Program-made: the position numbers and the translations under genes
Assembly (NCBI GenBank): GCA_046351595.1
Contig: JAXLYE010000002.1
Span: 1,304,022 to 1,368,021, forward strand
Source: Polyangia bacterium
Lineage (GTDB): Bacteria > Myxococcota_A > Polyangia > Palsa-1104 > JAEUJZ01
Length of the DNA: 64,000 nucleotides
Reading direction: 5' to 3'
Notes under the pieces: model-generated
What the model was told of the DNA's origin: nothing
The model's database searches: none
Seen by the model: only the letters and a program-made list of their open reading frames with translations
In this document: piece after piece, positions 726 through 59,576 of the stretch
Layout of the letters: every line of letters begins with the position of its first letter
Numbering within the stretch: the first letter of the stretch is position 1

Positions 726-741
726 TGGCACCTGCCTTGCT
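726..741 (+). promoter_or_regulatory. Sigma54 (RpoN) -24/-12 promoter TGGCAC-N5-TTGCT
   Basis: tcgTGGCACctgccTTGCTgc has exact GG-N10-GC spacing, about 57 bp upstream of the ATG at 798. Confidence 0.55.
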
Positions 742-797
742 GCTCTGGGATCGCGTCGGGCGCGGCTCTGCTGAGGCATGGATGCGCCCGCAGTGAG

Positions 798-1742
798 GTG
801 CCGATGGCGAGCCTGAGCCGTGAGCTGCGACAGTCGAGCCGACTCCGCCTGGTGATGCCGGCGCTGTGTCGGCACGAGGGCGGCGTGGTCCGCGCGCTGG
901 TGCAGGACATCAGCCGCGAAGGGATCTTCCTGCGGCTCGCCGAGTACGTCCCGCCGGGCTCGATCTCGGGCGTCGAGCTGGCGCTGCCCGAGGAGGCGAC
1001 GCCGCTCGTGCTCGCGGTCTCGGCCCGCTTCGTCGGCCGCACCCCGCACGGCTTCGGCGTCGGCATGCGCATCGTCGAGCCGGCACCGGCCGAGCGGCAG
1101 CGCTGGGAGCGCTTCTACACCGCCCTGCAGCGCGGGGCCCGTTCGCGCCGCGCCACCTCGAGCGGGCGCGTGCTCGTCGCCGCGCGCGCGCTGCCGGCGG
1201 GGCTCGTCGAGCGGCTGGTCGCGCAGGGCCTGGCCGTGATCAGCGCCCGCGACAACAGCGAGGTGCTGGACCGGGTCCGGCCGAACAGCAACGACGTGGT
1301 GCTGGCCGAGCTGCATGATGCGCGGCTCAGCGGCGCGGCGCTGTGCGAGGGCCTCAAGCGCCGCCGTGCGCTCGCGCGGATCGCGGTCGTCCTGGTCACG
1401 GACAGCGGCGCCGCGTCGGACTTCCTCGCCGGCCTCGACGCGGGCGCGGACTACGTCATCGCGCGGCCGTTCAGCGCCGAGTACTGCGCATCGCGGATCC
1501 TCGCCGCCGCGCGCCAGCGTGAGCCCAGCGGACCACGCGCCGAGCCTGGGCCCGCAGCCGGTCCGCGCCTGTACACCACGGAGTCTGGGGCCAGGCTGGA
1601 GCCCCTGCGCGCGCCTTCCGCCGTGCCGGCGTGCCTGGTGCATGCCGCCGATCGCATCGCGGATGCGTGCTTCCTGTTGAAGGGCCTGGCGCGGAACCAG
1701 CTCCGCAGGCTCAAGCAGCGCTGGGACGCACCAGGCCGGTGA
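798..1742 (+). CDS. PilZ domain protein with a C-terminal pseudo-receiver (REC-like) domain
   Basis: PilZ motifs RQSSR and DISREG are near the N-terminus. The C-terminal part resembles CheY-like receivers (VVLVTDSG, AGADYVIARPF), but the phospho-acceptor position reads AELHD, Glu in place of Asp, and the acidic pair is absent. Confidence 0.75.
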   Translation: MPMASLSRELRQSSRLRLVMPALCRHEGGVVRALVQDISREGIFLRLAEYVPPGSISGVELALPEEATPLVLAVSARFVGRTPHGFGVGMRIVEPAPAERQRWERFYTALQRGARSRRATSSGRVLVAARALPAGLVERLVAQGLAVISARDNSEVLDRVRPNSNDVVLAELHDARLSGAALCEGLKRRRALARIAVVLVTDSGAASDFLAGLDAGADYVIARPFSAEYCASRILAAARQREPSGPRAEPGPAAGPRLYTTESGARLEPLRAPSAVPACLVHAADRIADACFLLKGLARNQLRRLKQRWDAPGR

Positions 1743-1898: not shown

Positions 1899-3980
1899 CT
1901 ACTTCTTCTGCTGCTGCGCGGCCGGCTTCTTCACGCCACCCGGCGCGGGCTTGTTGGGCAGGTTCTTGGGTGCGGTGTCCGTGGTGTCAGGCGACGCCAC
2001 GTCGGCCGGGTTGACCTGCTGCACGCCCTTGGCCACCGGCGGGTCGGTCACGTTGAACTCGACGCGGCGGTTGGCGGCGCGGCCCTGCTGCGTGGTGTTG
2101 GGCTTGATCGGGTGCGTCTGACCGTGGCCGTGCGGCTCCAGGCGCGACTGATCGACGCCTTCCTTGATCAGGAAGCGGACCACGCTCTTTGCGCGGCGCT
2201 CGGACAGATCCTGGTTGTGCTCCAGGCCGCCGCGGTCGTCGGTGTGACCGTCGACCGACATCTTCTTGATCATCGGCGTGTGCTTGAGCACCGTGGCCAC
2301 CGCCTTCAGCACCGGGAAGCTCTGCGGCAGGATCACGTCCTGATCCGTCGCGAAGAACACGGGCTTGAGGATCTTCAGCTCGCCGTCGGTCATCTGGATC
2401 AGGCCGCCGGGGCAGCCGTTCTTCTTCGGATCCGGATCCGGAGCGCCGGGCTTGTCGGGGCACGCGTCGGTCTTGTCGGGCACGTTGTCGTGATCGCGGT
2501 CGGGCAGCGGGCAGCCGATGCGGTCCGGATCCGGGTTCAGGCCGGCCGGGACCTCGGGGCACTTGTCCTCGGGATCGAGCACGCCGTCCTTGTCCTTGTC
2601 GCCGGCCGGGCAGCCGCGGCGCGCCGGGTCGGGCGTCTGGCCCATGTGCACGTCGGGGCACATGTCCTCGTTGTCGAGCACGCCGTCGCCGTCGCGATCG
2701 CCCATCGGGCAGCCGCGGCGCGCCGGGTCGGGCTGGTTGCCCATGTGCACGTCGGGGCACAGGTCGTCCTTGTCGAAGACGCCGTCCTTGTCGCGGTCAC
2801 TGAGCGGGCAGCCGCGGCGCTCGGGATCCGGGTTCTGGCCCATCGGCTCGTCGGGGCACAGGTCCTCGTGATCCATCACGCCGTCGCCGTCGCGGTCGGC
2901 CGGCGGGCAGCCGTTGGTGCGGCGATCGCCGGTCTTGATGCCCTTGACCGTGACGCAGGCATCGTCCTTGTCCATGATGCCGTCGCCGTCGGTGTCCTTG
3001 TCGGGCTCGCGGATCGGCGCGTAGGCCAGGCGCAAGAGCACGCGGCCGTCGGGCGTGCCGGGCTGGCGCAGCGCGCCGATGCCGCCGGCGAGGCCGACCT
3101 GCACGAGCTTGGCGATGTTGTAGTGCGCGCCCAGCAGGATCTCGAGGCTGGTGTGGTCGCGCGCGACACCCTCGGGGCCGATGACCTGCGTCGCGAGCAG
3201 GGCCTCGGGGCCGACCGCGAAGCGCTTCTCGAGGTTGGCGTAGTACAGGCCGAGGCCGAACTGCAGCTCGGAGCCGGTCTTGCTGCCGGCCGGGTTCTCG
3301 AGGTTGCCGATGGTGGCCTCGGGCCGGTAGTAGAACGCGGCGGTGAACGACCAGCGCAGCCAGTCCTTCAAGCCGCCCAGGACGATCTTGGGCATGACGC
3401 GCACGCCCTGCTCGCCGGTGGTGTTCGTGAGGACCGAGCTGTCGCCGGCGATCGCGCGCAGCGGGATCCACACGAAGGCGCCGAGGTGGACCGAGATCGG
3501 GTCGCGGTCGGCGTGCTTCCACAGCCGGACCATGCCGCCGATGCGCGGATCGCCGACGCCGGCGCCCTGCATCGGGGTGATGCCGGCGATGGGCGTATCG
3601 GTGCCGCGCTCCAGGAGCGTAATCGGCAGCGTCAGCGACAGCGTCACGCGGTCGAGGAACGAGCCGGCCAGGTCGACGTGGCCGAGCAGCTGGTGGCCGA
3701 TGACCACCTGGTTCTGCTGGAACGTGCCGTCGGGCTGCGCGGTGCCGAAGACCAGCGGCTGGTGGCCGTAGTTGAGCGTGATGCCGCCCGCGAAGTACCG
3801 CGTCGAGGAGTACCAGGGGTGGTCGACCATGAAGGACCACTCACCGGCGGCCGTGGGCTCATAGCGGTTGAGCTGGAAGCCGGTGTTCTGGGCGTGAGCG
3901 GGGCTCGCCAACGACAGCAGCGCCGCAGCGGCTACACCCAACAGGCAATGTCGTTTCAGAAGTCGCACGAGTTCCTCCAT
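1899..3980 (-). CDS. OmpA-family outer-membrane protein with thrombospondin type-3 (DxDxDGxxDxxD) calcium-binding repeats
   Basis: The signal peptide is MEELVRLLKRHCLLGVAAAALLSLASPAHAQ. There are many DRDGDGV/DKDKDGV repeats. The C-terminal OmpA_C-like domain reads GHTDDRGGLEHNQDLSERRAKSV...NRRVEF. The start is chosen at the internal Met before the signal peptide. Confidence 0.85.
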   Translation of the reverse strand: MEELVRLLKRHCLLGVAAAALLSLASPAHAQNTGFQLNRYEPTAAGEWSFMVDHPWYSSTRYFAGGITLNYGHQPLVFGTAQPDGTFQQNQVVIGHQLLGHVDLAGSFLDRVTLSLTLPITLLERGTDTPIAGITPMQGAGVGDPRIGGMVRLWKHADRDPISVHLGAFVWIPLRAIAGDSSVLTNTTGEQGVRVMPKIVLGGLKDWLRWSFTAAFYYRPEATIGNLENPAGSKTGSELQFGLGLYYANLEKRFAVGPEALLATQVIGPEGVARDHTSLEILLGAHYNIAKLVQVGLAGGIGALRQPGTPDGRVLLRLAYAPIREPDKDTDGDGIMDKDDACVTVKGIKTGDRRTNGCPPADRDGDGVMDHEDLCPDEPMGQNPDPERRGCPLSDRDKDGVFDKDDLCPDVHMGNQPDPARRGCPMGDRDGDGVLDNEDMCPDVHMGQTPDPARRGCPAGDKDKDGVLDPEDKCPEVPAGLNPDPDRIGCPLPDRDHDNVPDKTDACPDKPGAPDPDPKKNGCPGGLIQMTDGELKILKPVFFATDQDVILPQSFPVLKAVATVLKHTPMIKKMSVDGHTDDRGGLEHNQDLSERRAKSVVRFLIKEGVDQSRLEPHGHGQTHPIKPNTTQQGRAANRRVEFNVTDPPVAKGVQQVNPADVASPDTTDTAPKNLPNKPAPGGVKKPAAQQQKK

Positions 3981-4171
3981 CAGCAGGCAAATGTCAGCGC
4001 GAGCCGGCGGCTCGCATGAACTGGGCAGGGGACCGGTCGGCCCGCGCCGCACGCCGCTGCCCAGGGCAGGGCAGGCGGGTGCGGCCGGAGCCGGAGTGAG
4101 CGCCGCGAGCTCGGTGCATGGGGTGGGAGCTCAACGCAAAAAGATCCGAGCTGCGGCGCGGCTGCGGACGG

Positions 4172-6619
4172 CTAGCGCCCCTCGCCGAGGCGACGACGCC
4201 GCCACAGGCCCAGGAGCAGCACGCTGCACAGCGCGAAGAAGGTCAGGCCCTGCGCGCGCGTCGCCGCCGTGGGGCCGACGCTGCAGCTGAAGCCGCCGCC
4301 CGCGAGCTGATCCTCGCCGGTGCCGGGGCCGCCGATGAGGTCACTGCGCGTGACGACGTTGTTCTCCAGGTTCGGATCGTTGGCGCTCGGCGTGCGCACC
4401 GTCGTGTTGATGTCGACGGTCTTCTGGCCGGGGCCGGGCACGACCACGATGCTGATGTCCGGCGCCTTGCCCGGAGGGATGGGCATGTTGTACGTGCACG
4501 TGATCTGCCGATCCTTCTGGCTGCACTGCCAGTCGGGGCCGGGGTTGATCTCCTTGATCGTCCCGCCCGGCGGCACGTCGTACACGACGATGACGCCCGG
4601 AGGCGCGGTGCCGGGGCCGTTGTTGTTCACGGTGATGACGTGCGTGACCGGCTCCTCGGCGCGCGGCGGGTTGGGCTTGGTGCGCACCGTGATCGACAGG
4701 TCGACGTCGGGGATGCGGCAGCGGCTCGTGGCGGTGTCGCAGCTGTTCGACAGGCAGTCACTGTCCTTGGTGCAGCCGCACATCTTGGCCGGGGTGCAGA
4801 TCTGGCCGGTGGGGACGCCGCGGCAGTCCAGGTCGTTCGTGCAGGTGTTGGTGCACTTGAACGCGCTGACGTCGCAGCGCGGCATCATCGACGGGCAGTC
4901 GAGGTTGGTCATGCACTCGCGCACCGAGATCGAGACCGGGCGGTTGGGGAAGAAGACCGGCTTGCCCTTGTCCGGACCGTCGAGCGGCGTGGCGACGCTG
5001 CCGGTGTTCCACGAGGCCGGCGGGATGCCCTGGGTGATGCCGACCATGCCCGAGGCGGTGATGACGCCGCCGATCTGGATGTCCTTGCCGTTGGCCGACG
5101 GATCGACCGTGGTCTGGAACGAGATCGAGGGCGGCGTGTCGTTGGTCGTGACCGAGCCGCCCTTGGTCGCGGTGGCGCCGGTGCCGACGTAGACCTTGAG
5201 GGTGCGGGTCACCGGGTCGTAGACCACCTGGTCATCGCCCATGCCGTCGGTCTTGGGGCCGGCGTTGGGGCCGTTGTTGACCGTCGTCGAGTTGAACACG
5301 TAGGTCAGGCCCGGGGGCAGCTGGATCGTGACGTAGGTGTCGACGCTGGCGTCGGTGCCGGTGTTGGGCGTGGTGACCGTGAACTTGAGCTTGTCGCTCG
5401 GCCGCACGCCGCCGCCGGGGTTGGTGACGTTGGTGTAGTCGAGGCGGCTCTCCGAGAAGATCGGCGTCAGCGTCGCCACCGAGCCGGCGAGCACGCCGAC
5501 GAAGTAGGTGTCGTTGGTGGTGCTGGCCGCGACGTCGATCGACTTGTCGCCGGCCTTGACCAGCGCGGTGATGTCGACGATGTCCATGTCGACGCCGCTC
5601 AGGCTGTCGGGCTGGCCGTTGGTCTGCGGCAGGTCGCCGGTCTGGGTGACGGCGTTGCCGCCGTTGCTGCGCGTGCCGTTGAAGAAGTTGGTCGGCGGGT
5701 TCAGGCCGTTGGTCAGGTTCTGGGTGTTGACCGAGATGCGGTCGCCCGTCGAGCCGGCGTTGCCCTCGTAGGCGACGACGCCGAGCTTGGCGTCGAAGCC
5801 GGTCATCGGGACCAGGAACCCGCTCAGCTTGGCGCTGACCGTGGCACCGCCCGCGACCTGATCGAAGCCCTCGAACACGGTGAGGTTGCGCGGCGGCGCG
5901 GCCTGGGTCTGGTAGAAGACCACGACGCTCCAGGCGGCGTAGAGCAGCTGGTCGGCGCCGTTGACCGGGCTGACCGTGGCGACGTTGCTGACGCGGAAGG
6001 CGCCGGCGCCGTAGGTCTGGACCAGGTCGGTGATGTCCGCGGTCTGCTGGTAGTGCGTGCCCGAGGCGATGACGTCGAGCGACGCCGTCGAGTCGGCGGC
6101 GACCATGCGGCTGAACACGCCGGGGCGGTCGACGCCGATCTGCGCCGTCGGCGAGATCGCGCCCTTGGGCCCCTCGGCCGACCAGTACAGGCGGGCGTAC
6201 GTCACGACCGCGCCGGCCGGCAGCGACAGCACCGCGGTGCTGCGCGCCATCGGCGGCGTGATCGTGGTGCCGGCGTTGGCGGTGCCGGCATCGTCCGCGC
6301 GCCACAGCACGTCGATGTCGTTGTCATCGGTGTTCATGCCGCAGCTGGGATCGACGGTGCCCACGACCGGCTTGGGCGTGGTCGCTCGGCAGTCGTAGCC
6401 GAGCGTATTGCCGAAGATCACCATGTCGCCGCGCTGGCTGACCTGGTAGCGCAGCGACGGCGCAGCGGCAGCCGGGCGGCTCACCAGTCCGACTCCTGCA
6501 AGGAGCGCCGCAGCCAGGAACGCAGGCAGGTACGTAGCAATGCGCTTGGCCAAGTACGTAGGCCGCTCGGCCGCGACACCGAACCGCTTCGCGCGTCGCA
6601 AGGTCTCACTAGGTCTCAT
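4172..6619 (-). CDS. Secreted cell-surface protein with a MYXO-CTERM sorting signal and a Cys-rich EGF-like module
   Basis: The C-terminus GGGFSCSVG...ALCSVLLLGLWRRRRLGEGR matches the MYXO-CTERM pattern (GC motif, hydrophobic helix, Arg cluster). The start MRPSE at 6619 has a strong RBS (GGGAGGAAccaATG) and a signal-like hydrophobic segment. Internal repeat domains and a Cys-rich block CPSMMPRCDVSAFKCTNTCTNDLDC are present. Confidence 0.8.
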   Translation of the reverse strand: MRPSETLRRAKRFGVAAERPTYLAKRIATYLPAFLAAALLAGVGLVSRPAAAAPSLRYQVSQRGDMVIFGNTLGYDCRATTPKPVVGTVDPSCGMNTDDNDIDVLWRADDAGTANAGTTITPPMARSTAVLSLPAGAVVTYARLYWSAEGPKGAISPTAQIGVDRPGVFSRMVAADSTASLDVIASGTHYQQTADITDLVQTYGAGAFRVSNVATVSPVNGADQLLYAAWSVVVFYQTQAAPPRNLTVFEGFDQVAGGATVSAKLSGFLVPMTGFDAKLGVVAYEGNAGSTGDRISVNTQNLTNGLNPPTNFFNGTRSNGGNAVTQTGDLPQTNGQPDSLSGVDMDIVDITALVKAGDKSIDVAASTTNDTYFVGVLAGSVATLTPIFSESRLDYTNVTNPGGGVRPSDKLKFTVTTPNTGTDASVDTYVTIQLPPGLTYVFNSTTVNNGPNAGPKTDGMGDDQVVYDPVTRTLKVYVGTGATATKGGSVTTNDTPPSISFQTTVDPSANGKDIQIGGVITASGMVGITQGIPPASWNTGSVATPLDGPDKGKPVFFPNRPVSISVRECMTNLDCPSMMPRCDVSAFKCTNTCTNDLDCRGVPTGQICTPAKMCGCTKDSDCLSNSCDTATSRCRIPDVDLSITVRTKPNPPRAEEPVTHVITVNNNGPGTAPPGVIVVYDVPPGGTIKEINPGPDWQCSQKDRQITCTYNMPIPPGKAPDISIVVVPGPGQKTVDINTTVRTPSANDPNLENNVVTRSDLIGGPGTGEDQLAGGGFSCSVGPTAATRAQGLTFFALCSVLLLGLWRRRRLGEGR

Positions 6620-6795
6620 TGGTTCCTCCCATAGGATGAAAGCAGTGGGGACTGTGGGGGCCAGTGTGCACCGACTTGGCGGCTTGGGAGAAAAGAAATC
6701 CACGGTTTTCTCGACCTCGCTCCAGAGTCCGTCAAACACTCGGGTTCCCGCTCCCGAGCGCGCGCAGCGACGGAGGAGAGGCTGCCCGGAGGCCG

Positions 6796-7498: not shown

Positions 7499-9436
7499 TC
7501 AGGGACCTGGCCCCTCGCCCGGCGCGCCCTCTTGCCGGCCGTACAGGCGGCGGCCCAGGTCGGCGAGCGCGTCCAGCCCGAGCGGCGGCGTGCCCAGCGT
7601 GACGGTCGTCAGCCGGGTCGGCGCCGCGGCGGCGGCCAGGTCCGCGAGCACCTTGCCCTCGCGCTCGCACAGCGCCGCGCACAGCCGGCAGCCCGGGCTC
7701 GCGGCCGCCGTCGCCTGGTTGACGAAGATGCGCGACAGCGCGATGCCCGCGCGCGCGCACGCGGCCAGCAGGTCCTGCGTCTCGGCGTAGGCCAGGTACG
7801 TCGGGATCGTCACCGCGCACAGGCGGGTCTGCTGCGGCGCGGCCAGCAGCCGGCGCAGCGCCTTCAGGTGCTTGGACAGCGCGATCAGCCGGTCGGTGAG
7901 GCGCGGCAGCCGCATCACGCTCTTCTGCTTCAGCAGCACCGCGAACAGCGCCCGCAGCCAGCCCTCCAGAATCGCCGGCATCTCGAGCAGCCGCAGAAGG
8001 TGCCCGGTCGGCGCGGTGTCGAGCACCACGAGCGCGTCGGGCGCCTCCTCCAGGATCTCGGTGAGCCGCGTCAGCGACACGATCTCGTCGAGGCCGGGCG
8101 GCGTCAGGTCGAGCAGCCGCTCGAGCGCGCGGCGATCGAACGCCAGGTCGGCGTTGCGCAGCTTGTGCCGCAGGACGTCCGAGAGCTCGTCCTTGTAGGC
8201 GTCGCGCCAGTCCCGCCACTGCGCCTCGGGATCTGGCGCCAGCGCGGTGAGCCGCGGCGTGATGGGTCGCGGCTCGGCGCCGACCGCGGTGCCGAGCGCC
8301 GCCGACAGCGAGTGCGCCGGATCCGTGGACAGGAGCACCACCGGGCGCTCCACCGACAGCGCCAGCGCCGTCGCGCAGGCCAGCGTGGTCTTGCCGACGC
8401 CGCCCTTGCCCGCGAACACCAGCAGCCGGCGCTCGGGCGGCGGCGGCGGCGCGGGCGCGACGACCTGCGGCGCCACCTCGGGCCCGCCGGCGCGCGGCGC
8501 GGTCGACGGCTCGGGCAGCGGCTGCGCCAGCTCCCACAGCGACACCAGCGCGGCGCGCCCGCGCACCTCCTGCGCGAGCAGCGGCAGGCCCCAGCGCTCC
8601 TGCACCGGCGCGGTCACCAGCCGCGCATCGAGAGCGCCCTGTTGCGCCGCGCGGACGCGGGCGCACTGCGCGCAGCCGCTCTCGGGGCGCAGGCGGTTGA
8701 CGACGAGCGGACCGAGGTGCAGCCGCCGCGCGTGGAGCCGCTCTAAAAACCCGAGCGTCACGTCGATGCACAGCGGCTCGGCCACGAGCGTCGTCACCAG
8801 GCAGCTGCGCTCCGAGCACAAGAGCGCCTGCGTGCGCCGCGCCGACTCTCCGAGCTCGCTGAGCAGGCGGTCCGTCTCGTCCTCGCGGTAGGCGCCGGCG
8901 AAATGCTGCGCGAGGAAGCGGTGCTTGGCCAGCAGGTCATCCAGCGCCTCGACCCAGTCGCGCAAGAGGGCCGGCACGTCGAGCAGCCGCTCGGTGTGGC
9001 CGCTCGGCGCGGTGTCGACGAGGACCGTCTGCGGCGGCGCCGCCTGCGTCCACTCGGCGATGCGCAGGAACGCCAAAAGCTCGTCGAGCCCGGGCAGCGA
9101 CAGGTCGAAGAAGCGGTCGAGGTCCGCCTCGTCGAGGAAGGTGCCGCGCCGCGCGATCTCGCGCAGCACCGCGCCCTTGTGCGCCATGAACTCGTCGAGG
9201 CACTCCTTCGCATCGAGCTCGACGACCCGCAGGTTGGCCGGCAGCGGCTCGTCACCCAGGCAGTCGCGCAGCGAGTGCGCCGGGTCGACCGAGACCAGCA
9301 GGTACGGCGCCTGCGGGTTGTGCACCGAGAGGTACAGCGCCGTCGCCGCGGCGCAGGTCGTCTTGCCGACGCCGCCCTTGCCCGCGAACAGAAGGAGCTG
9401 CAGGTCGGTGCGGCACAGGAAGCTCGGCAAGTTCAT
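7499..9436 (-). CDS. Tandem-domain Get3/TRC40-like (ArsA-family) ATPase with a CxxC motif in both halves
   Basis: Two P-loop NTPase repeats are present (LLFAGKGGVGKTTCAAATA...VDPAHSL and LLVFAGKGGVGKTTLACATA...TDPAHSL). Each half has VN(Q/R)...GCxxCA (SGCAQCARV and PGCRLCAALC), which is the Get3-type zinc/dimer motif rather than the ArsA metalloid-site Cys pattern. Confidence 0.85.
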   Translation of the reverse strand: MNLPSFLCRTDLQLLLFAGKGGVGKTTCAAATALYLSVHNPQAPYLLVSVDPAHSLRDCLGDEPLPANLRVVELDAKECLDEFMAHKGAVLREIARRGTFLDEADLDRFFDLSLPGLDELLAFLRIAEWTQAAPPQTVLVDTAPSGHTERLLDVPALLRDWVEALDDLLAKHRFLAQHFAGAYREDETDRLLSELGESARRTQALLCSERSCLVTTLVAEPLCIDVTLGFLERLHARRLHLGPLVVNRLRPESGCAQCARVRAAQQGALDARLVTAPVQERWGLPLLAQEVRGRAALVSLWELAQPLPEPSTAPRAGGPEVAPQVVAPAPPPPPERRLLVFAGKGGVGKTTLACATALALSVERPVVLLSTDPAHSLSAALGTAVGAEPRPITPRLTALAPDPEAQWRDWRDAYKDELSDVLRHKLRNADLAFDRRALERLLDLTPPGLDEIVSLTRLTEILEEAPDALVVLDTAPTGHLLRLLEMPAILEGWLRALFAVLLKQKSVMRLPRLTDRLIALSKHLKALRRLLAAPQQTRLCAVTIPTYLAYAETQDLLAACARAGIALSRIFVNQATAAASPGCRLCAALCEREGKVLADLAAAAAPTRLTTVTLGTPPLGLDALADLGRRLYGRQEGAPGEGPGP

Positions 9437-9573
9437 GGCCCGTCACCCGCGCCGCCGCGTCGGCCGCGGTGACGCCGCAGGCCACCGGCCGGGGCGATGG
9501 CGTCCAGGGACTTGTCGCCCGGCTGCTCACTGCGATCGGTCATGAAGGACCCCTGCTGCTCGAGCCGACTGAA

Positions 9574-10329: not shown

Positions 10330-10344
10330 TGGCATGCCGGTTGC
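10330..10344 (+). promoter_or_regulatory. Possible sigma54-type -24/-12 element TGGCAT-N5-TTGC upstream of hemG
   Basis: gtGGCATgccggTTGCgc has GG-N10-GC spacing. It lies only about 14 bp before the ATG at 10358, so the leader would be very short, hence the low confidence. Confidence 0.3.
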
Positions 10345-15411: not shown

Positions 15412-15632
15412 GGCGACTCCCTCCCTTCGCTCGGCGCGGCCGCCCTGCCCGCAGCCTGAGCAACCGCCGTGCCGTCGTCGCTGAGCGGCAGCCCGGCCAG
15501 CTCGGCGTAGGCCGCGCGCTGCGAGCCGCGCAGCGTGTACAGGACCGCAGCGACGAACGTGATCAGGAACGACAGCATCGCCACGATCGGGAGGATCAGG
15601 AGGCCGCGTCCGGAAAAGAACTCGTGGTACAT
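15408..15632 (-). CDS. ccoQ: Small single-TM cbb3 subunit CcoQ/FixQ-like
   Basis: It is 74 aa with one hydrophobic helix (LLILPIVAMLSFLITFVAAVLY), lies between ccoNO and ccoP, and its stop overlaps the ccoP start. Confidence 0.7.
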   Translation of the reverse strand: MYHEFFSGRGLLILPIVAMLSFLITFVAAVLYTLRGSQRAAYAELAGLPLSDDGTAVAQAAGRAAAPSEGRESP

Positions 15633-18221: not shown

Positions 18222-20737
18222 GCGGTCACCTCGGCGGGGGCTGGCAGCAAGCGCGGTGCCTGCCGGAGCGGCGCCTCGCGGGGCGCGGCCTGCGCCTCTG
18301 CGCTGCGGAACGAGCGCAGCGTCGCCAGCACGACCAGTAGGGAGCTCACCGGCATGAGCAGCGCGCAGCGCAGCGGCGTCATCATGCCGGCGAGCGCCAG
18401 CGCGACCACGGCGACGTTGTAGGCGCCGCTCAGGAGCAGGTTGCGGACGATGACGCGGCGCAAGAAGCGCGCGGTCGCGAGCGACTCGGCGATGGGGCCG
18501 AGGCCGTGGCCCAGGAAGTAGAAGTCGGCGCGCGCGGGCAGGGCCGGGCGCTCGGTCGCCGGCGTGCCCGCGCAGAGCGCGGCATGGAAGGCGAGGGCGT
18601 CGTTGATGCCGTCGCCGATCATCATCGTGTCGGGCGAATCGGGCGCGCCGATGCGCTGCACCGCGGCCGCCTTGTCCTCGGGGCGCAGGCCGCCGAGCGC
18701 CTGCTCCGCGGGGACGCCGAGCCGAGTCGCCAGCGCGCTCACCCGCTCGGGCTGATCGCCCGAGAGCAGCCACACCTTGTAGCCGGCCGCGGCGAGCGCA
18801 TCGACCTGGTCGCGCGCGTCCGGGCGCAGCTCCTCGCGGAAGCGGAAGCAGGCGCGGAGCGTGCCCGCGATGCTGAACAAAAGCGCGCCGCCGCTCCCGG
18901 GAGGAGTCGGGGACGCGGTCGTGGCGTCTGCGCCCACGAACTCGGCGGTGCCGAGGCGCACGGCCTGGCCCGCGAGCTCGGCCACGAGGCCGCGGCCCGG
19001 CTCCTCGAGCACCACGGTCGCGGTGTCGAGCACCGGCGGCGCCGCCATCATGCGCACGAGCGCGTCGAGCAGGGCGCGGCTGCGCGGGTGGTTGGAGCGC
19101 GCCACGAGCTGGTACAGGGCGCCGCGCTCGGTCACGCCAAGCGCACGGAGCGCCTCGGGGTTCTCGAGCGCCGGCTCCAGCGCGGTCAGCGTGCCGGTCT
19201 TGTCGAACAGCACCTTGCGCACGCGCAGCGCGCGGTCGAAAAACGTCACGTCGCGGACGAACAGGCCGAGGCGGCGCAGCCGGCCCTGCGCCAGCTCGTA
19301 GGCCAGCGGCGTCGCCACGCCGAGCGCGCACGGGCACGTCACCATGAGCAGCGCCGCGGTCACCTCGAGCGCGCGGGCGCCGTCACGCGGCAGCCACAGC
19401 CCGAGCCCGAGCGCGGCCAGCGCCAGCACGCCGAGCACGTAGTAGCGGCTCAGGTGGTGCCAGAAGTCGCGCCGCGGCTCGCTCGTGCTCGGGTCGCGGC
19501 GCGCGCGCAAAAGCTCGCACAGCGCCGAGGCGCGGAAGTCCTCGGTGGCGCGCAGCCGCACGGCGCGGCCGCCGGCGCTCGCCGCCAGGTTGTGGGCACC
19601 GGCGGGGGCGCGATCGCCGCGCGTGAACAGCCGCGGCTCGGCCTCGCCGCTGATCCACTCCAGCGACAGGAGCGCGCGCTCCTCCAGGCACTCGCACGCG
19701 GTCGGCAGGAGCTCGCCGGGCGCGCACAGGAGCTCTTGGCCCGCGCGCAGCTCGCTCGCCGGCAGCAGGCGCATGCGGCCGTCGCCGTCCACCGCGCGGA
19801 CCACGAAACCGGCGATGCCCTCGTCGCTGAGCAGGACGCGGCGGTTGTGGCTGGCGATGCGCCGCTGGATCAGGCGCCCCATCAGCATGAGCGCGATGAA
19901 GGTCGTCAGCGTGTCAAAGTACGCGGACTGGCCGCCGCGGCTCACAAAGGCCCAGGCGCTGCCCGCGTAGGCCAGCAGCATGCCGAGCGCGATCGGCACG
20001 TCCATGTGCAGGATGCGCCGCCGCAGCGCACCGATCGCCGAGCGGACGAAGACGCTGCCGCCGAGCAGCAGCGCGGCGGTGGCGAGCGCGAAGCTGCCGA
20101 TCGAGAAGATGCGGTACAGGCCCGAGTCCGCGCCGCCGCTGCCGCCACCGTCTTCCAGGCCGAAGTAGATGGCGAACGAAAAGATCATGCTGTTCATGGC
20201 CAGCGCCGCGCACAGGCCGAAGCGCAGCAAGAGGTCATCGCCCTCGTCATCGGGGCGCTTGCGCGGCGGCCCGGCGCGGTAGCCGAACGGCTGCAGCTCG
20301 TCGAGGAAGCGGCCGAGGATGCGGCTGCCCTCGCCGGACTGCCAGAAGACCTCGGCGCGGCCGAGCGCGGGGTTGATGGTGATCGCGCGCGCGCCCGGGA
20401 TGCGGCGGAACAGCCGCTCGATCAGCCACACGCACGCCGCGCACTGCAGGCCCTGCAGATCCAGGGTGAGGCGCGCGGTGCCGCTCTGCGCGCTCTGCTC
20501 CGCTGCCTCGATCAGCGGCGCCAGCCAGGTGCGGCTGTCTTCACCGCGCGCGGAGCCCGGGACCGCCAGCCGCTGCCCGTCGAGCAGATCGTAGAAGCGG
20601 GAGAGGCCGGCCTGCTCGATCAGCTCGTGCGCGGCGCGGCAGCCGGTGCAGCAGTAGGGCGCAGTCGCCGCACCTTTTGCGATCGGGCTGTGACAGTGCG
20701 GACACGTGCTGCGCATCAAAAAACTTCCTTCCAACAA
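18218..20737 (-). CDS. ccoI: Copper-translocating P1B-type ATPase CcoI/FixI
   Basis: An N-terminal Cys-rich metal-binding region is followed by the TM CPC motif (TCPCALGV), DKTGTLT and GDGINDA. Confidence 0.9.
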
Positions 20738-58556: not shown

Positions 58557-59576
58557 GTGGAGCAGGCGCTCGCCAGCGGGGTCGTGCTGTCGTCGGGGCT
58601 CGGGGTGCGGCCGCTGGCCGGTGCGGCGCTCGAGCGTGAGGCGGCGGCGGCGCTGCTCACCGCGGCCCTGCCGCACGACCGCATCGACGTCGTCCTCGAC
58701 GAGAAGCTGTTCGGCGGCAACGGCCGGCGGCCGAGCCAGACCCTGGGCGCCTTCTCGGGTGGCGGCGAGCTGCTCGGCGTCCTGGCCCAGGCCGGGCGCT
58801 TCATCAAGCTCCTGGCGGTGCTGCCCTCGGCGCAGCGGCGCGGCGTCGGCACGGCGCTGCTGCGAGCGGCGCGCGCGTTTGTCGCGGCTCCCGAGGCCGG
58901 CGACGGCGGCCGACCGCGACTGCGCATCGGCGATTGCGCCGGCAACTACCTCTCGCCCGGCGTCGACGAGCGCTACGCCGCGGCACGGGACTTCTTCACG
59001 GCGCGCGGCTTCGTCGAGGTCGGCCGCAACCTCAACCTGCGCGCCGCGCTCGCCGACCACCCGCTCGTCACCGCCGAGCGCGCCGAGGCCCTCGAGCACC
59101 GCGCCCGCGACGCCGGGTACCGCCTGCTCCGCGCCGGCGCCGCCGAGGCCCCGGCGCTGCTCGAGCTCGTCGAGCGCGAGTTCTCGTGGTGGTGGGCCTA
59201 CGAGCTCCGCCGCGCCCTCGGCCCGACGCTGCCGCTCGGTGGCCGGTGGGACGAGGGCGAGCCGACCGCGCACACACCCGAGCTGCCCGAGGGCTCGGGC
59301 GTGCACGTCGCGCTCGATGCCGCGGGCGCGCCCGTCGCCTTCGCGGCGCACGACGGCAACAACCGCGGCCTCGGCTGGTTCGGCCCCATGGGCACGCTGC
59401 CCGCGCACCGCGGTCACGGGCTCGGCGAGGCGCTGCTGCTGCGCTGCCTGCTCGACGTGCGCGACCGCGCTGATGGCGGCGTCATCGCCTGGGTCGGTCC
59501 CGAGGCCTTCTACGCGCGCGCTGCTGGCACGGTGCCGGACCGCCGCTTCACCGTCTACGAGGAGGCCGCAAGCTAG
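58557..59576 (+). CDS. Tandem-GNAT N-acetyltransferase
   Basis: Two acetyl-CoA-binding motifs are present (LLAVLPSAQRRGVGTALL and FGPMGTLPAHRGHGLGEALL). Its GTG start immediately follows the upstream stop. Confidence 0.75.
   Translation: MEQALASGVVLSSGLGVRPLAGAALEREAAAALLTAALPHDRIDVVLDEKLFGGNGRRPSQTLGAFSGGGELLGVLAQAGRFIKLLAVLPSAQRRGVGTALLRAARAFVAAPEAGDGGRPRLRIGDCAGNYLSPGVDERYAAARDFFTARGFVEVGRNLNLRAALADHPLVTAERAEALEHRARDAGYRLLRAGAAEAPALLELVEREFSWWWAYELRRALGPTLPLGGRWDEGEPTAHTPELPEGSGVHVALDAAGAPVAFAAHDGNNRGLGWFGPMGTLPAHRGHGLGEALLLRCLLDVRDRADGGVIAWVGPEAFYARAAGTVPDRRFTVYEEAAS

Follow-up and report, generated by a model that had tools for sequence, protein, structure and literature searches.

The stretch analysed here (the window) comprises 64,000 nt of contig JAXLYE010000002.1 from an uncultured Polyangia genome (GCA_046351595.1, positions 1,304,022 to 1,368,021 of the forward strand) and has a G+C content of 72%. 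On its forward strand lies a gene for a PilZ plus pseudo-receiver protein (804–1742, with the stop codon at 1740–1742). The gene is preceded by a sigma54 (−24/−12) promoter motif and, further upstream, by a second conserved intergenic element, which we call the upstream element (UE). Its product carries a PilZ domain, a receiver fold lacking the phosphotransfer residues and a C-terminal extension.

The 312-amino-acid product from the ATG at 804 is identical to NCBI MFO0574833.1, which is annotated as 'MAG: response regulator [Polyangia bacterium]' (MAG, metagenome-assembled genome). A GAGG ribosome-binding site (794–797) was found six bases 5′ of this ATG, and the M1 given by this start aligns across all orthologues. 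The start was set to ATG 804 on these three grounds. The list of open reading frames (ORFs) and the initial annotation of this DNA had used GTG 798, which was rejected: the GAGG would abut the GTG, and it is at ATG 804 that the alignment of the orthologues begins.

The gene upstream ends at 383, leaving an intergenic region of 420 bp. A convergent gene (1899–4052, reverse strand) comes next downstream, with a terminator-like hairpin before it at 1878–1897. Convergent downstream genes were also found at the orthologous loci L002–L005 and L008. The PilZ–pseudo-receiver unit is monocistronic.

Orthologues of the protein (P0001–P0008) are 47–82% identical and come from uncultured Polyangia and unclassified MAGs. 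Among the GTDB representative genomes, the only orthologue was DAOMZC010000064 (locus L003); the other two matches were ordinary receivers.

The sigma54 motif, TGGCACCTGCCTTGCT, occupies 726–741 on the forward strand and matches the consensus with no mismatches. It consists of TGGCAC (726–731), the spacer CTGCC and TTGCT (737–741). The initial annotation had described a consensus sigma54 motif with exact GG-N10-GC spacing, and this description is correct: GG lies at 727–728 and GC at 739–740, exactly 10 nt apart. It had also placed the motif about 57 bp upstream of the gene. The upstream placement stands and the distance does not. With the start at ATG 804 rather than GTG 798, the GC element lies 64 nt and the first base of the motif 78 nt 5′ of the start codon. 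Transcription is predicted to start at about 751–753, which would give a leader of ~50 nt. This leader, read from the sequence and including the GAGG, falls within 742–803. It is not conserved, because the distance from promoter to ATG ranges from 77 to 161 nt among the orthologous loci. A search of 300–2000 for leader RNAs or riboswitches gave no Rfam family at threshold. The sole sub-threshold match in this range, ybhL, lay on the opposite strand inside the coding region and was discarded.

An exact match to TGGCAC-N5-TTGCW was found once in the window on both strands, with 0.03 expected from dinucleotide-preserving shuffles (3 of 100 shuffles contained any such match). Looser forms occurred about as often as expected: three matches versus 2.3 for TGGC-N7-TTGC, and three versus 1.3 when one mismatch was allowed. 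Since the looser forms are at chance frequency, a single exact match is by itself only suggestive.

The comparison between loci covered the orthologue contigs (except that of P0003), two more distant full-length relatives and three loci found by DNA pattern. TGGYAY-N5-TTGC was present within 400 nt upstream of the gene in six of six independent lineages, with a chance of ≤0.0012 per lineage (region shuffles). It was on the gene's strand in every locus whose upstream sequence was examined, although the proteins have diverged to ~48% identity. L001 has the same motif as the window; the others read TGGCATCTGCCTTGCT (L049), TGGCACCCGGCTTGCG (L009), TGGTACTCGGCTTGCT (L010), TGGCACCGCCCTTGCT (L016), TGGTATCTGGCTTGCA (L003 and L005), TGGTATCTGCCTTGCA (L034) and TGGTATCGCTTTTGCA (L008). 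The intergenic regions, aligned with MAFFT, had a mean column identity of 48%, and the DNA surrounding the conserved positions could not be aligned. Clustered invariant columns were restricted to T-G-G-x-A and T-T-G-C of the sigma54 motif and to the UE. The flanking genes vary: an S41 peptidase gene lies upstream in L002–L005 and an unknown one in L001; in L015, there is a divergent gas-vesicle gene. Hence, the sigma54 motif travels with the PilZ–pseudo-receiver gene and not with its neighbours. A scan of 300–2000 revealed no sigma70-type promoter. The presence and the conservation of the motif are direct observations; use of sigma54 is what we infer. There is a high probability that 726–741 acts as a functional sigma54 promoter.

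Three weaker sigma54-like motifs occur elsewhere in the window. The first, TGGCATGCCGGTTGC (10330–10344, forward strand), lies 15 nt before ATG 10359 of a gene with a Flavodoxin_5 domain. Its use would give an almost leaderless mRNA; motifs of this looser class are at chance frequency. The other two have one mismatch each and are together at chance level: CGGCACGGCGGTTGCT (15459–15474, reverse strand) and AGGCACCGCGCTTGCT (18246–18261, reverse strand), the latter just upstream of an ORF whose 5′ side ends at 18225.

The UE, GCGCGCGGTTTTGACACACCTGAGGGAGACGCGCACAG, spans ~37 bp at 575–611 on the forward strand. It is built from GCGCGCGG-TTTTGACACA followed by GCACAG, and apart from the sigma54 motif it is the only conserved island in the intergenic alignment. 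Over ten loci, its consensus is gcGcgCGG-T-TGAcACa, and in nine of the ten GCACAG follows ~14–17 nt further on. The distance from the TGAC of the UE to the TGG of the −24 element was 141 bp (three loci, the window having this value), 159 bp, 164 bp (four loci), 169 bp or 172 bp. This range of 141–172 bp is steadier than the distance from promoter to ATG, so the UE is tied to the promoter and not to the coding region. Such a position upstream of the −24 element is within the typical enhancer range of sigma54 promoters. The UE is thus a candidate enhancer, i.e. an upstream activating sequence to which a sigma54 activator might bind.

The UE pattern matched once in the window, with 0.04 matches expected. 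A scan of a metagenome collection gave 66 matches, which is about the chance level by a rough estimate on an assumed collection size. Three of the 66 precede this gene family, and the same three carry the sigma54 motif at a distance of 141–169 bp. As only these three combine the UE with a sigma54 motif and an orthologue, no wider regulon was seen. A UE-like string was also noted in L078 (340–400, reverse strand), where TGGTACGCGCTTTGCA follows 54 bp downstream, together with a small helical ORF. The contig is unrelated and has a G+C content of 64%, and the arrangement was judged coincidental.

Alternatively, the UE could be a second promoter, with its TTGACA resembling a −35 hexamer, or the operator of a repressor or another regulator, and the gene would then be under dual control. 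The hexamer is a perfect TTGACA in the window, L003, L005 and L010, and GCACAG lies ~16–17 nt downstream of it, which is a promoter-like spacing. Moreover, the UE has no dyad symmetry common to all lineages, and its distance to the −24 site is not helically phased across the loci. A palindrome, TGTGCC-N4-GGCACA, is present in the L003 lineage only; L005, L034 and L008 have a weaker TGTGC-N6-GCACA. However, GCACAG is unlike a −10 hexamer, the sigma70 scan was empty, and other lineages have CTGACA or CTGAGA as the hexamer. The distance to the −24 element is also better kept than that from promoter to ATG, and in more distant homologues, tandem repeats occupy the corresponding site upstream of sigma54-like motifs. 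We therefore consider a second promoter or an operator unlikely, and we continue with the UE as a putative enhancer.

The first domain of the protein (residues 8–105, 825–1118) matched PilZ (PF07238) with 34.1 bits versus a cutoff of 22.5 (E = 3.5e-8), over profile positions 2–100 of 102. The RxxxR motif is R9-QSS-R13 in the flexible N-terminus, and the DxSxxG motif is D35-I-S37-R-E-G40. R9, R13, D35, S37 and G40 were invariant in eight of eight orthologues, so the PilZ domain is canonical, as had been claimed. In the AlphaFold model, beta-barrel strands extend over residues 14–90 with a predicted local distance difference test (pLDDT) value of ~76–86, followed by a helix at 95–110. Because every residue known to contact cyclic di-GMP (c-di-GMP) is present, the domain is probably a ligand sensor, and binding of c-di-GMP is likely.

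The second domain (residues 121–238, 1164–1517) has a (beta-alpha)5 receiver fold. Response_reg (PF00072) matched residues 134–227 with 33.6 bits versus a cutoff of 30.2 (E = 4.9e-8). The match covers profile positions 14–105 only; hence, the profile recognised neither the first strand nor the acidic pair. The acidic pair of receivers, D12/D13 in CheY, holds Mg2+. In the window protein, the corresponding residues are A126/A127/R128, which are non-acidic whatever register is chosen after beta1. E169, the last residue of beta3, occupies the position of the phospho-acceptor (CheY D57). CheY T87 has its counterpart in T199, and R221 replaces the Lys at the position of CheY K109.

Several alignments agree on these assignments. 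When the family profile was compared with PDB sequences (HMMER), the Glu of '..VVLAELHD..' fell on the acceptor Asp of PhoP (1mvo) and RegX3 (2oqr). In the same alignments, the Thr of 'LVTD' fell on their Thr and the Arg of 'IARPF' on their Lys. A MAFFT alignment with CheY and PhoB paired A127/R128 with D12/D13, E169 with D57, T199 with T87 and R221 with K109. The strands assigned by AlphaFold and DSSP (121–125, 143–147, 165–169, 194–199 and 217–220) form five strand-helix units. With beta3 and beta4 ending at 169 and 199, respectively, and beta5 spanning 217–220, E169, T199 and R221 are at the sites of the catalytic residues of receivers. In Foldseek, all top matches were receivers. The best was BeF3-activated PhoB (1zes) with a template modelling (TM) score of 0.79, and the scores to the PhoB and VicR receivers were 0.79–0.83.

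The initial annotation had proposed a receiver fold in which the acceptor Asp is replaced by Glu and the acidic pair is missing. The profile alignment, MAFFT and the AlphaFold secondary structure bear out both substitutions, and the structure-aided check for a conserved acceptor Asp found E169 and no Asp at this position of the window protein. The change from Lys to Arg (R221) and the conserved C-terminal helix described below had been missed. The second domain is a pseudo-receiver by the published definition (PMC12632262): it is recognised as a receiver by computation and lacks the phosphotransfer residues. On these residues, it can probably not be phosphorylated, and it is probably a fixed interaction module, possibly in an active-like state.

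The acceptor and Lys positions are not uniform in the orthologous group. P0005, P0006 and P0007 (loci L002–L008) keep Asp169 and Lys221, with the acidic pair still lost. The other orthologues of the window protein have Glu and Arg; the divergent P0017 alone pairs Glu with Lys. Since P0005–P0007 carry Asp, Glu169 is a lineage state and not a constant of the family. Loss of the acidic pair apparently came first, followed by a correlated change from Asp/Lys to Glu/Arg.

These differences also bear on whether the receiver is still phosphorylated, either at another Asp such as D172 or at Asp169 where it is kept. In that case, the protein would resemble PixA (MXAN_1087) of Myxococcus xanthus, the closest characterised protein, in being an ordinary orphan response regulator. 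H171 and D172 are invariant among the orthologues, P0005–P0007 retain Thr together with Asp169 and Lys, and genetic results suggest that phosphorylation matters in PixA (PMC8316039). However, D172 lies three residues past E169 in the beta3–alpha3 loop of the AlphaFold model and thus off the catalytic position, and the window protein itself ends beta3 with Glu and has Arg in place of Lys. In no member of the orthologous group, and in none of the 23 wider PilZ-receiver homologues tabulated, are the positions of CheY D12/D13 both acidic. No histidine kinase gene adjoins the gene in any orthologous locus. Continued phosphorylation is, in our view, very unlikely, and a pseudo-receiver that works without it remains the preferred reading.

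The C-terminal extension (residues 241–312, 1524–1739) comprises a linker (residues 241–272), which is variable and modelled with low confidence, and a conserved helix (residues 276–308, 1629–1727) with pLDDT values of 52–74. Ten residues of the extension are invariant: L268, P275, D283, R284, D287, F290, A296, R297, L300 and R301. No Pfam family matched this part at E ≤ 1. Profile matches extending through the helix came from about six representative clusters among 1.84 billion proteins, and the conserved helix was found only in the narrow orthologous group. It is probably an output or partner-binding element.

Beyond the orthologous group, an exhaustive HMMER search returned wider PilZ-receiver proteins of ~250–330 amino acids. 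An intact acidic pair was found in none of the 23 inspected, and the acceptor position was D, E, N, A, S or T. Sigma54-like motifs were seen at three loci of distant homologues: TGGCACACGGGCTGCA in L017, TGGCGCGATCCGTGCT in L018 and TGGAACGATAGCTGCT in L015. They deviate at −14. These motifs hint that the sigma54 link is older than the orthologous group of the window. Together with the lack of intact acidic pairs, they support, without proving, a broader idea: the link between sigma54 and PilZ–pseudo-receiver proteins may be ancient and family-wide, and this myxobacterial clade of ~250–330-amino-acid proteins may have swapped control by a kinase for gating by an enhancer-binding protein (EBP) plus allosteric sensing of c-di-GMP. 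We put this forward tentatively and regard it as doubtful. If it were true, the orthologous group of the window would capture a stepwise decay of the phosphorylation site.

Direct repeats were noted at two of these distant loci, just upstream of the sigma54-like motif. In L018, 31-nt tandem repeats (2242–2272 and 2342–2372) lie 100 bp apart; in L015, 15-nt repeats (2161–2175 and 2194–2208) lie 33 bp apart. They are similar in kind to enhancer sites and differ from the UE in sequence.

Further downstream in the window, all on the reverse strand, are genes for an OmpA-family protein with thrombospondin type 3 repeats (the convergent gene at 1899–4052), a large secreted-looking DUF11/DUF3344 protein (4172–6739) and an ArsA-type ATPase (7499–9442). 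The ATPase gave two matched stretches, the best over its C-terminal half (339–634). None of these neighbours is kept beside the orthologues.

Taken as a whole, the locus is best explained as a self-contained regulatory cassette of sigma54 promoter, PilZ domain and pseudo-receiver in an uncultured Polyangia genome, and we hold this explanation with fair confidence. An EBP encoded elsewhere, unlinked to the gene, would bind 575–611 under some condition and activate sigma54-RNA polymerase held at 726–741. Transcription from about position 752 would yield a monocistronic mRNA for the 312-amino-acid protein. The PilZ domain would read the c-di-GMP level, and the pseudo-receiver and the C-terminal helix would relay the resulting state to a partner. 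Two inputs would therefore set activity: the timing of synthesis, given by sigma54 and its activator, and c-di-GMP. Neither of them is a histidine kinase. It is hardly credible that TGGCAC-N5-TTGCT is a chance match in GC-rich DNA and that transcription comes from another, unrecognised promoter: looser versions do occur at chance frequency, but the exact motif was expected only 0.03 times in the window, recurs in all six independent lineages, forms one of only two conserved intergenic islands and has no sigma70-like competitor in 300–2000.

Several points weigh against the cassette. A six-frame motif search of the window found no RpoN box, and it found no true GAFTGA and no ESELFGH as signs of an activator gene. 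A loose GAFSGG match at 58746 was judged spurious from the surrounding sequence, with no domain search made on its ORF. No activator gene adjoins the PilZ–pseudo-receiver gene in any locus. The UE, lacking common dyad symmetry and phasing as described above, may be the site of another regulator. No gene neighbourhood is conserved that would hint at the cellular process controlled. The AlphaFold model, built from an alignment of eight sequences, has a pLDDT of 72.7 and a predicted TM score of 0.58 as a whole, with the receiver core mostly at 85–93; because of the moderate whole-model confidence, the arrangement of the domains and the C-terminal helix are uncertain. For PixA, c-di-GMP binding is reported to be dispensable for the motility phenotype and a D180E variant to be inactive in M. 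xanthus (PMC8316039). As this variant is inactive, a Glu at the acceptor position does not guarantee an 'on' state.

The initial annotation had coupled a c-di-GMP effector to an EBP-controlled promoter. The conservation of the motif speaks for this coupling, and the novelty it implied was overstated, as EBPs, PilZ proteins, PilZ-receiver proteins such as PixA (PMC8316039) and Glu/Arg pseudo-receivers (PMC12632262) are all known. Myxobacteria encode sigma54 and have very numerous sigma54 promoters, EBPs by the dozen and many PilZ proteins. A signalling gene driven by sigma54 is therefore unsurprising in itself, and every component of the cassette is of a known, well-described kind. The new part is modest: a narrowly distributed, previously undescribed group of orthologues in which PilZ and a pseudo-receiver occur together with a conserved C-terminal helix. 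Also new are the conserved enhancer-like element and the sigma54 promoter attached to this group, and the natural Asp/Lys and Glu/Arg variants inside one family.

How pseudo-receivers are switched on and off has been described as largely unknown (PMC12632262). The cassette is a simple, testable case of pseudo-receiver control: the phosphorylation site is gone, and two inputs can be read from the sequence. As both the Asp/Lys and the Glu/Arg states exist in the orthologous group, natural variants could be compared for the role of Glu as a phosphomimetic. The practical value is limited, since the organisms are uncultured and the components all belong to well-described classes.

Among known systems, the PilZ effectors YcgR and FlgZ belong to flagellar regulons under alternative sigma factors, YcgR being sigma28-dependent. 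The likeness lies in the gating of a c-di-GMP response by a transcription programme, with the abundance of the effector set by a specialised sigma factor. Those proteins act in known flagellar regulons, whereas the window gene is from a myxobacterium.

PixA is the closest match in architecture. It has an N-terminal PilZ domain followed by a receiver fold, a similar size and an RxxxR motif starting at R9, and it is likewise myxobacterial (PMC8316039). Its gene is an orphan, apparently monocistronic and without an adjacent kinase. PixA shows in vitro binding of c-di-GMP and controls cell reversals. It keeps all phosphorylation residues including D180, and the genetics suggest that it is phosphorylated. 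In contrast, the acidic pair, the acceptor and the Lys are replaced in the window protein by Ala/Ala/Arg, Glu and Arg, and the family of the window protein has a conserved C-terminal helix outside the PilZ and receiver regions. PixA is reported to be conserved only in close, fruiting Cystobacterineae, and nothing on its promoter was found in the passages covered (PMC8316039). PixA was not recognised among the HMMER representatives. Orthology of the two proteins is unlikely, given this distribution and the phosphorylation residues missing from the window protein.

The PhoB variant D10A/D53E (PDB 2jb9, titled constitutively active) resembles the window protein in the loss of an acidic-pair residue combined with an Asp-to-Glu change at the acceptor. 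It was the best-scoring PhoB sequence in PDB against the family profile, and the model of the receiver can be superposed on BeF3-activated PhoB. The changes in 2jb9 were engineered, and they are in a DNA-binding regulator. An active-like state of the natural protein is only a possibility.

In type, the domain is similar to the pseudo-receivers or aspartate-less receivers (FrzS of M. xanthus is one), in which a fold recognised by PF00072 lacks the catalytic residues (PMC12632262, PMC4395418, PMC1974792). FrzS also combines its pseudo-receiver with a C-terminal helical region. The most common replacements in this class are Glu at the Asp and Arg at the Lys position, Glu can mimic aspartyl-phosphate, and some constitutively active pseudo-receivers are controlled via their synthesis (PMC12632262). 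An association with PilZ is not mentioned in the 2025 review of the class, in which 'PilZ' occurs zero times (PMC12632262). The window protein differs from the class in the fusion of its pseudo-receiver to a PilZ domain, and its orthologous group differs in holding both the Asp/Lys and the Glu/Arg state.

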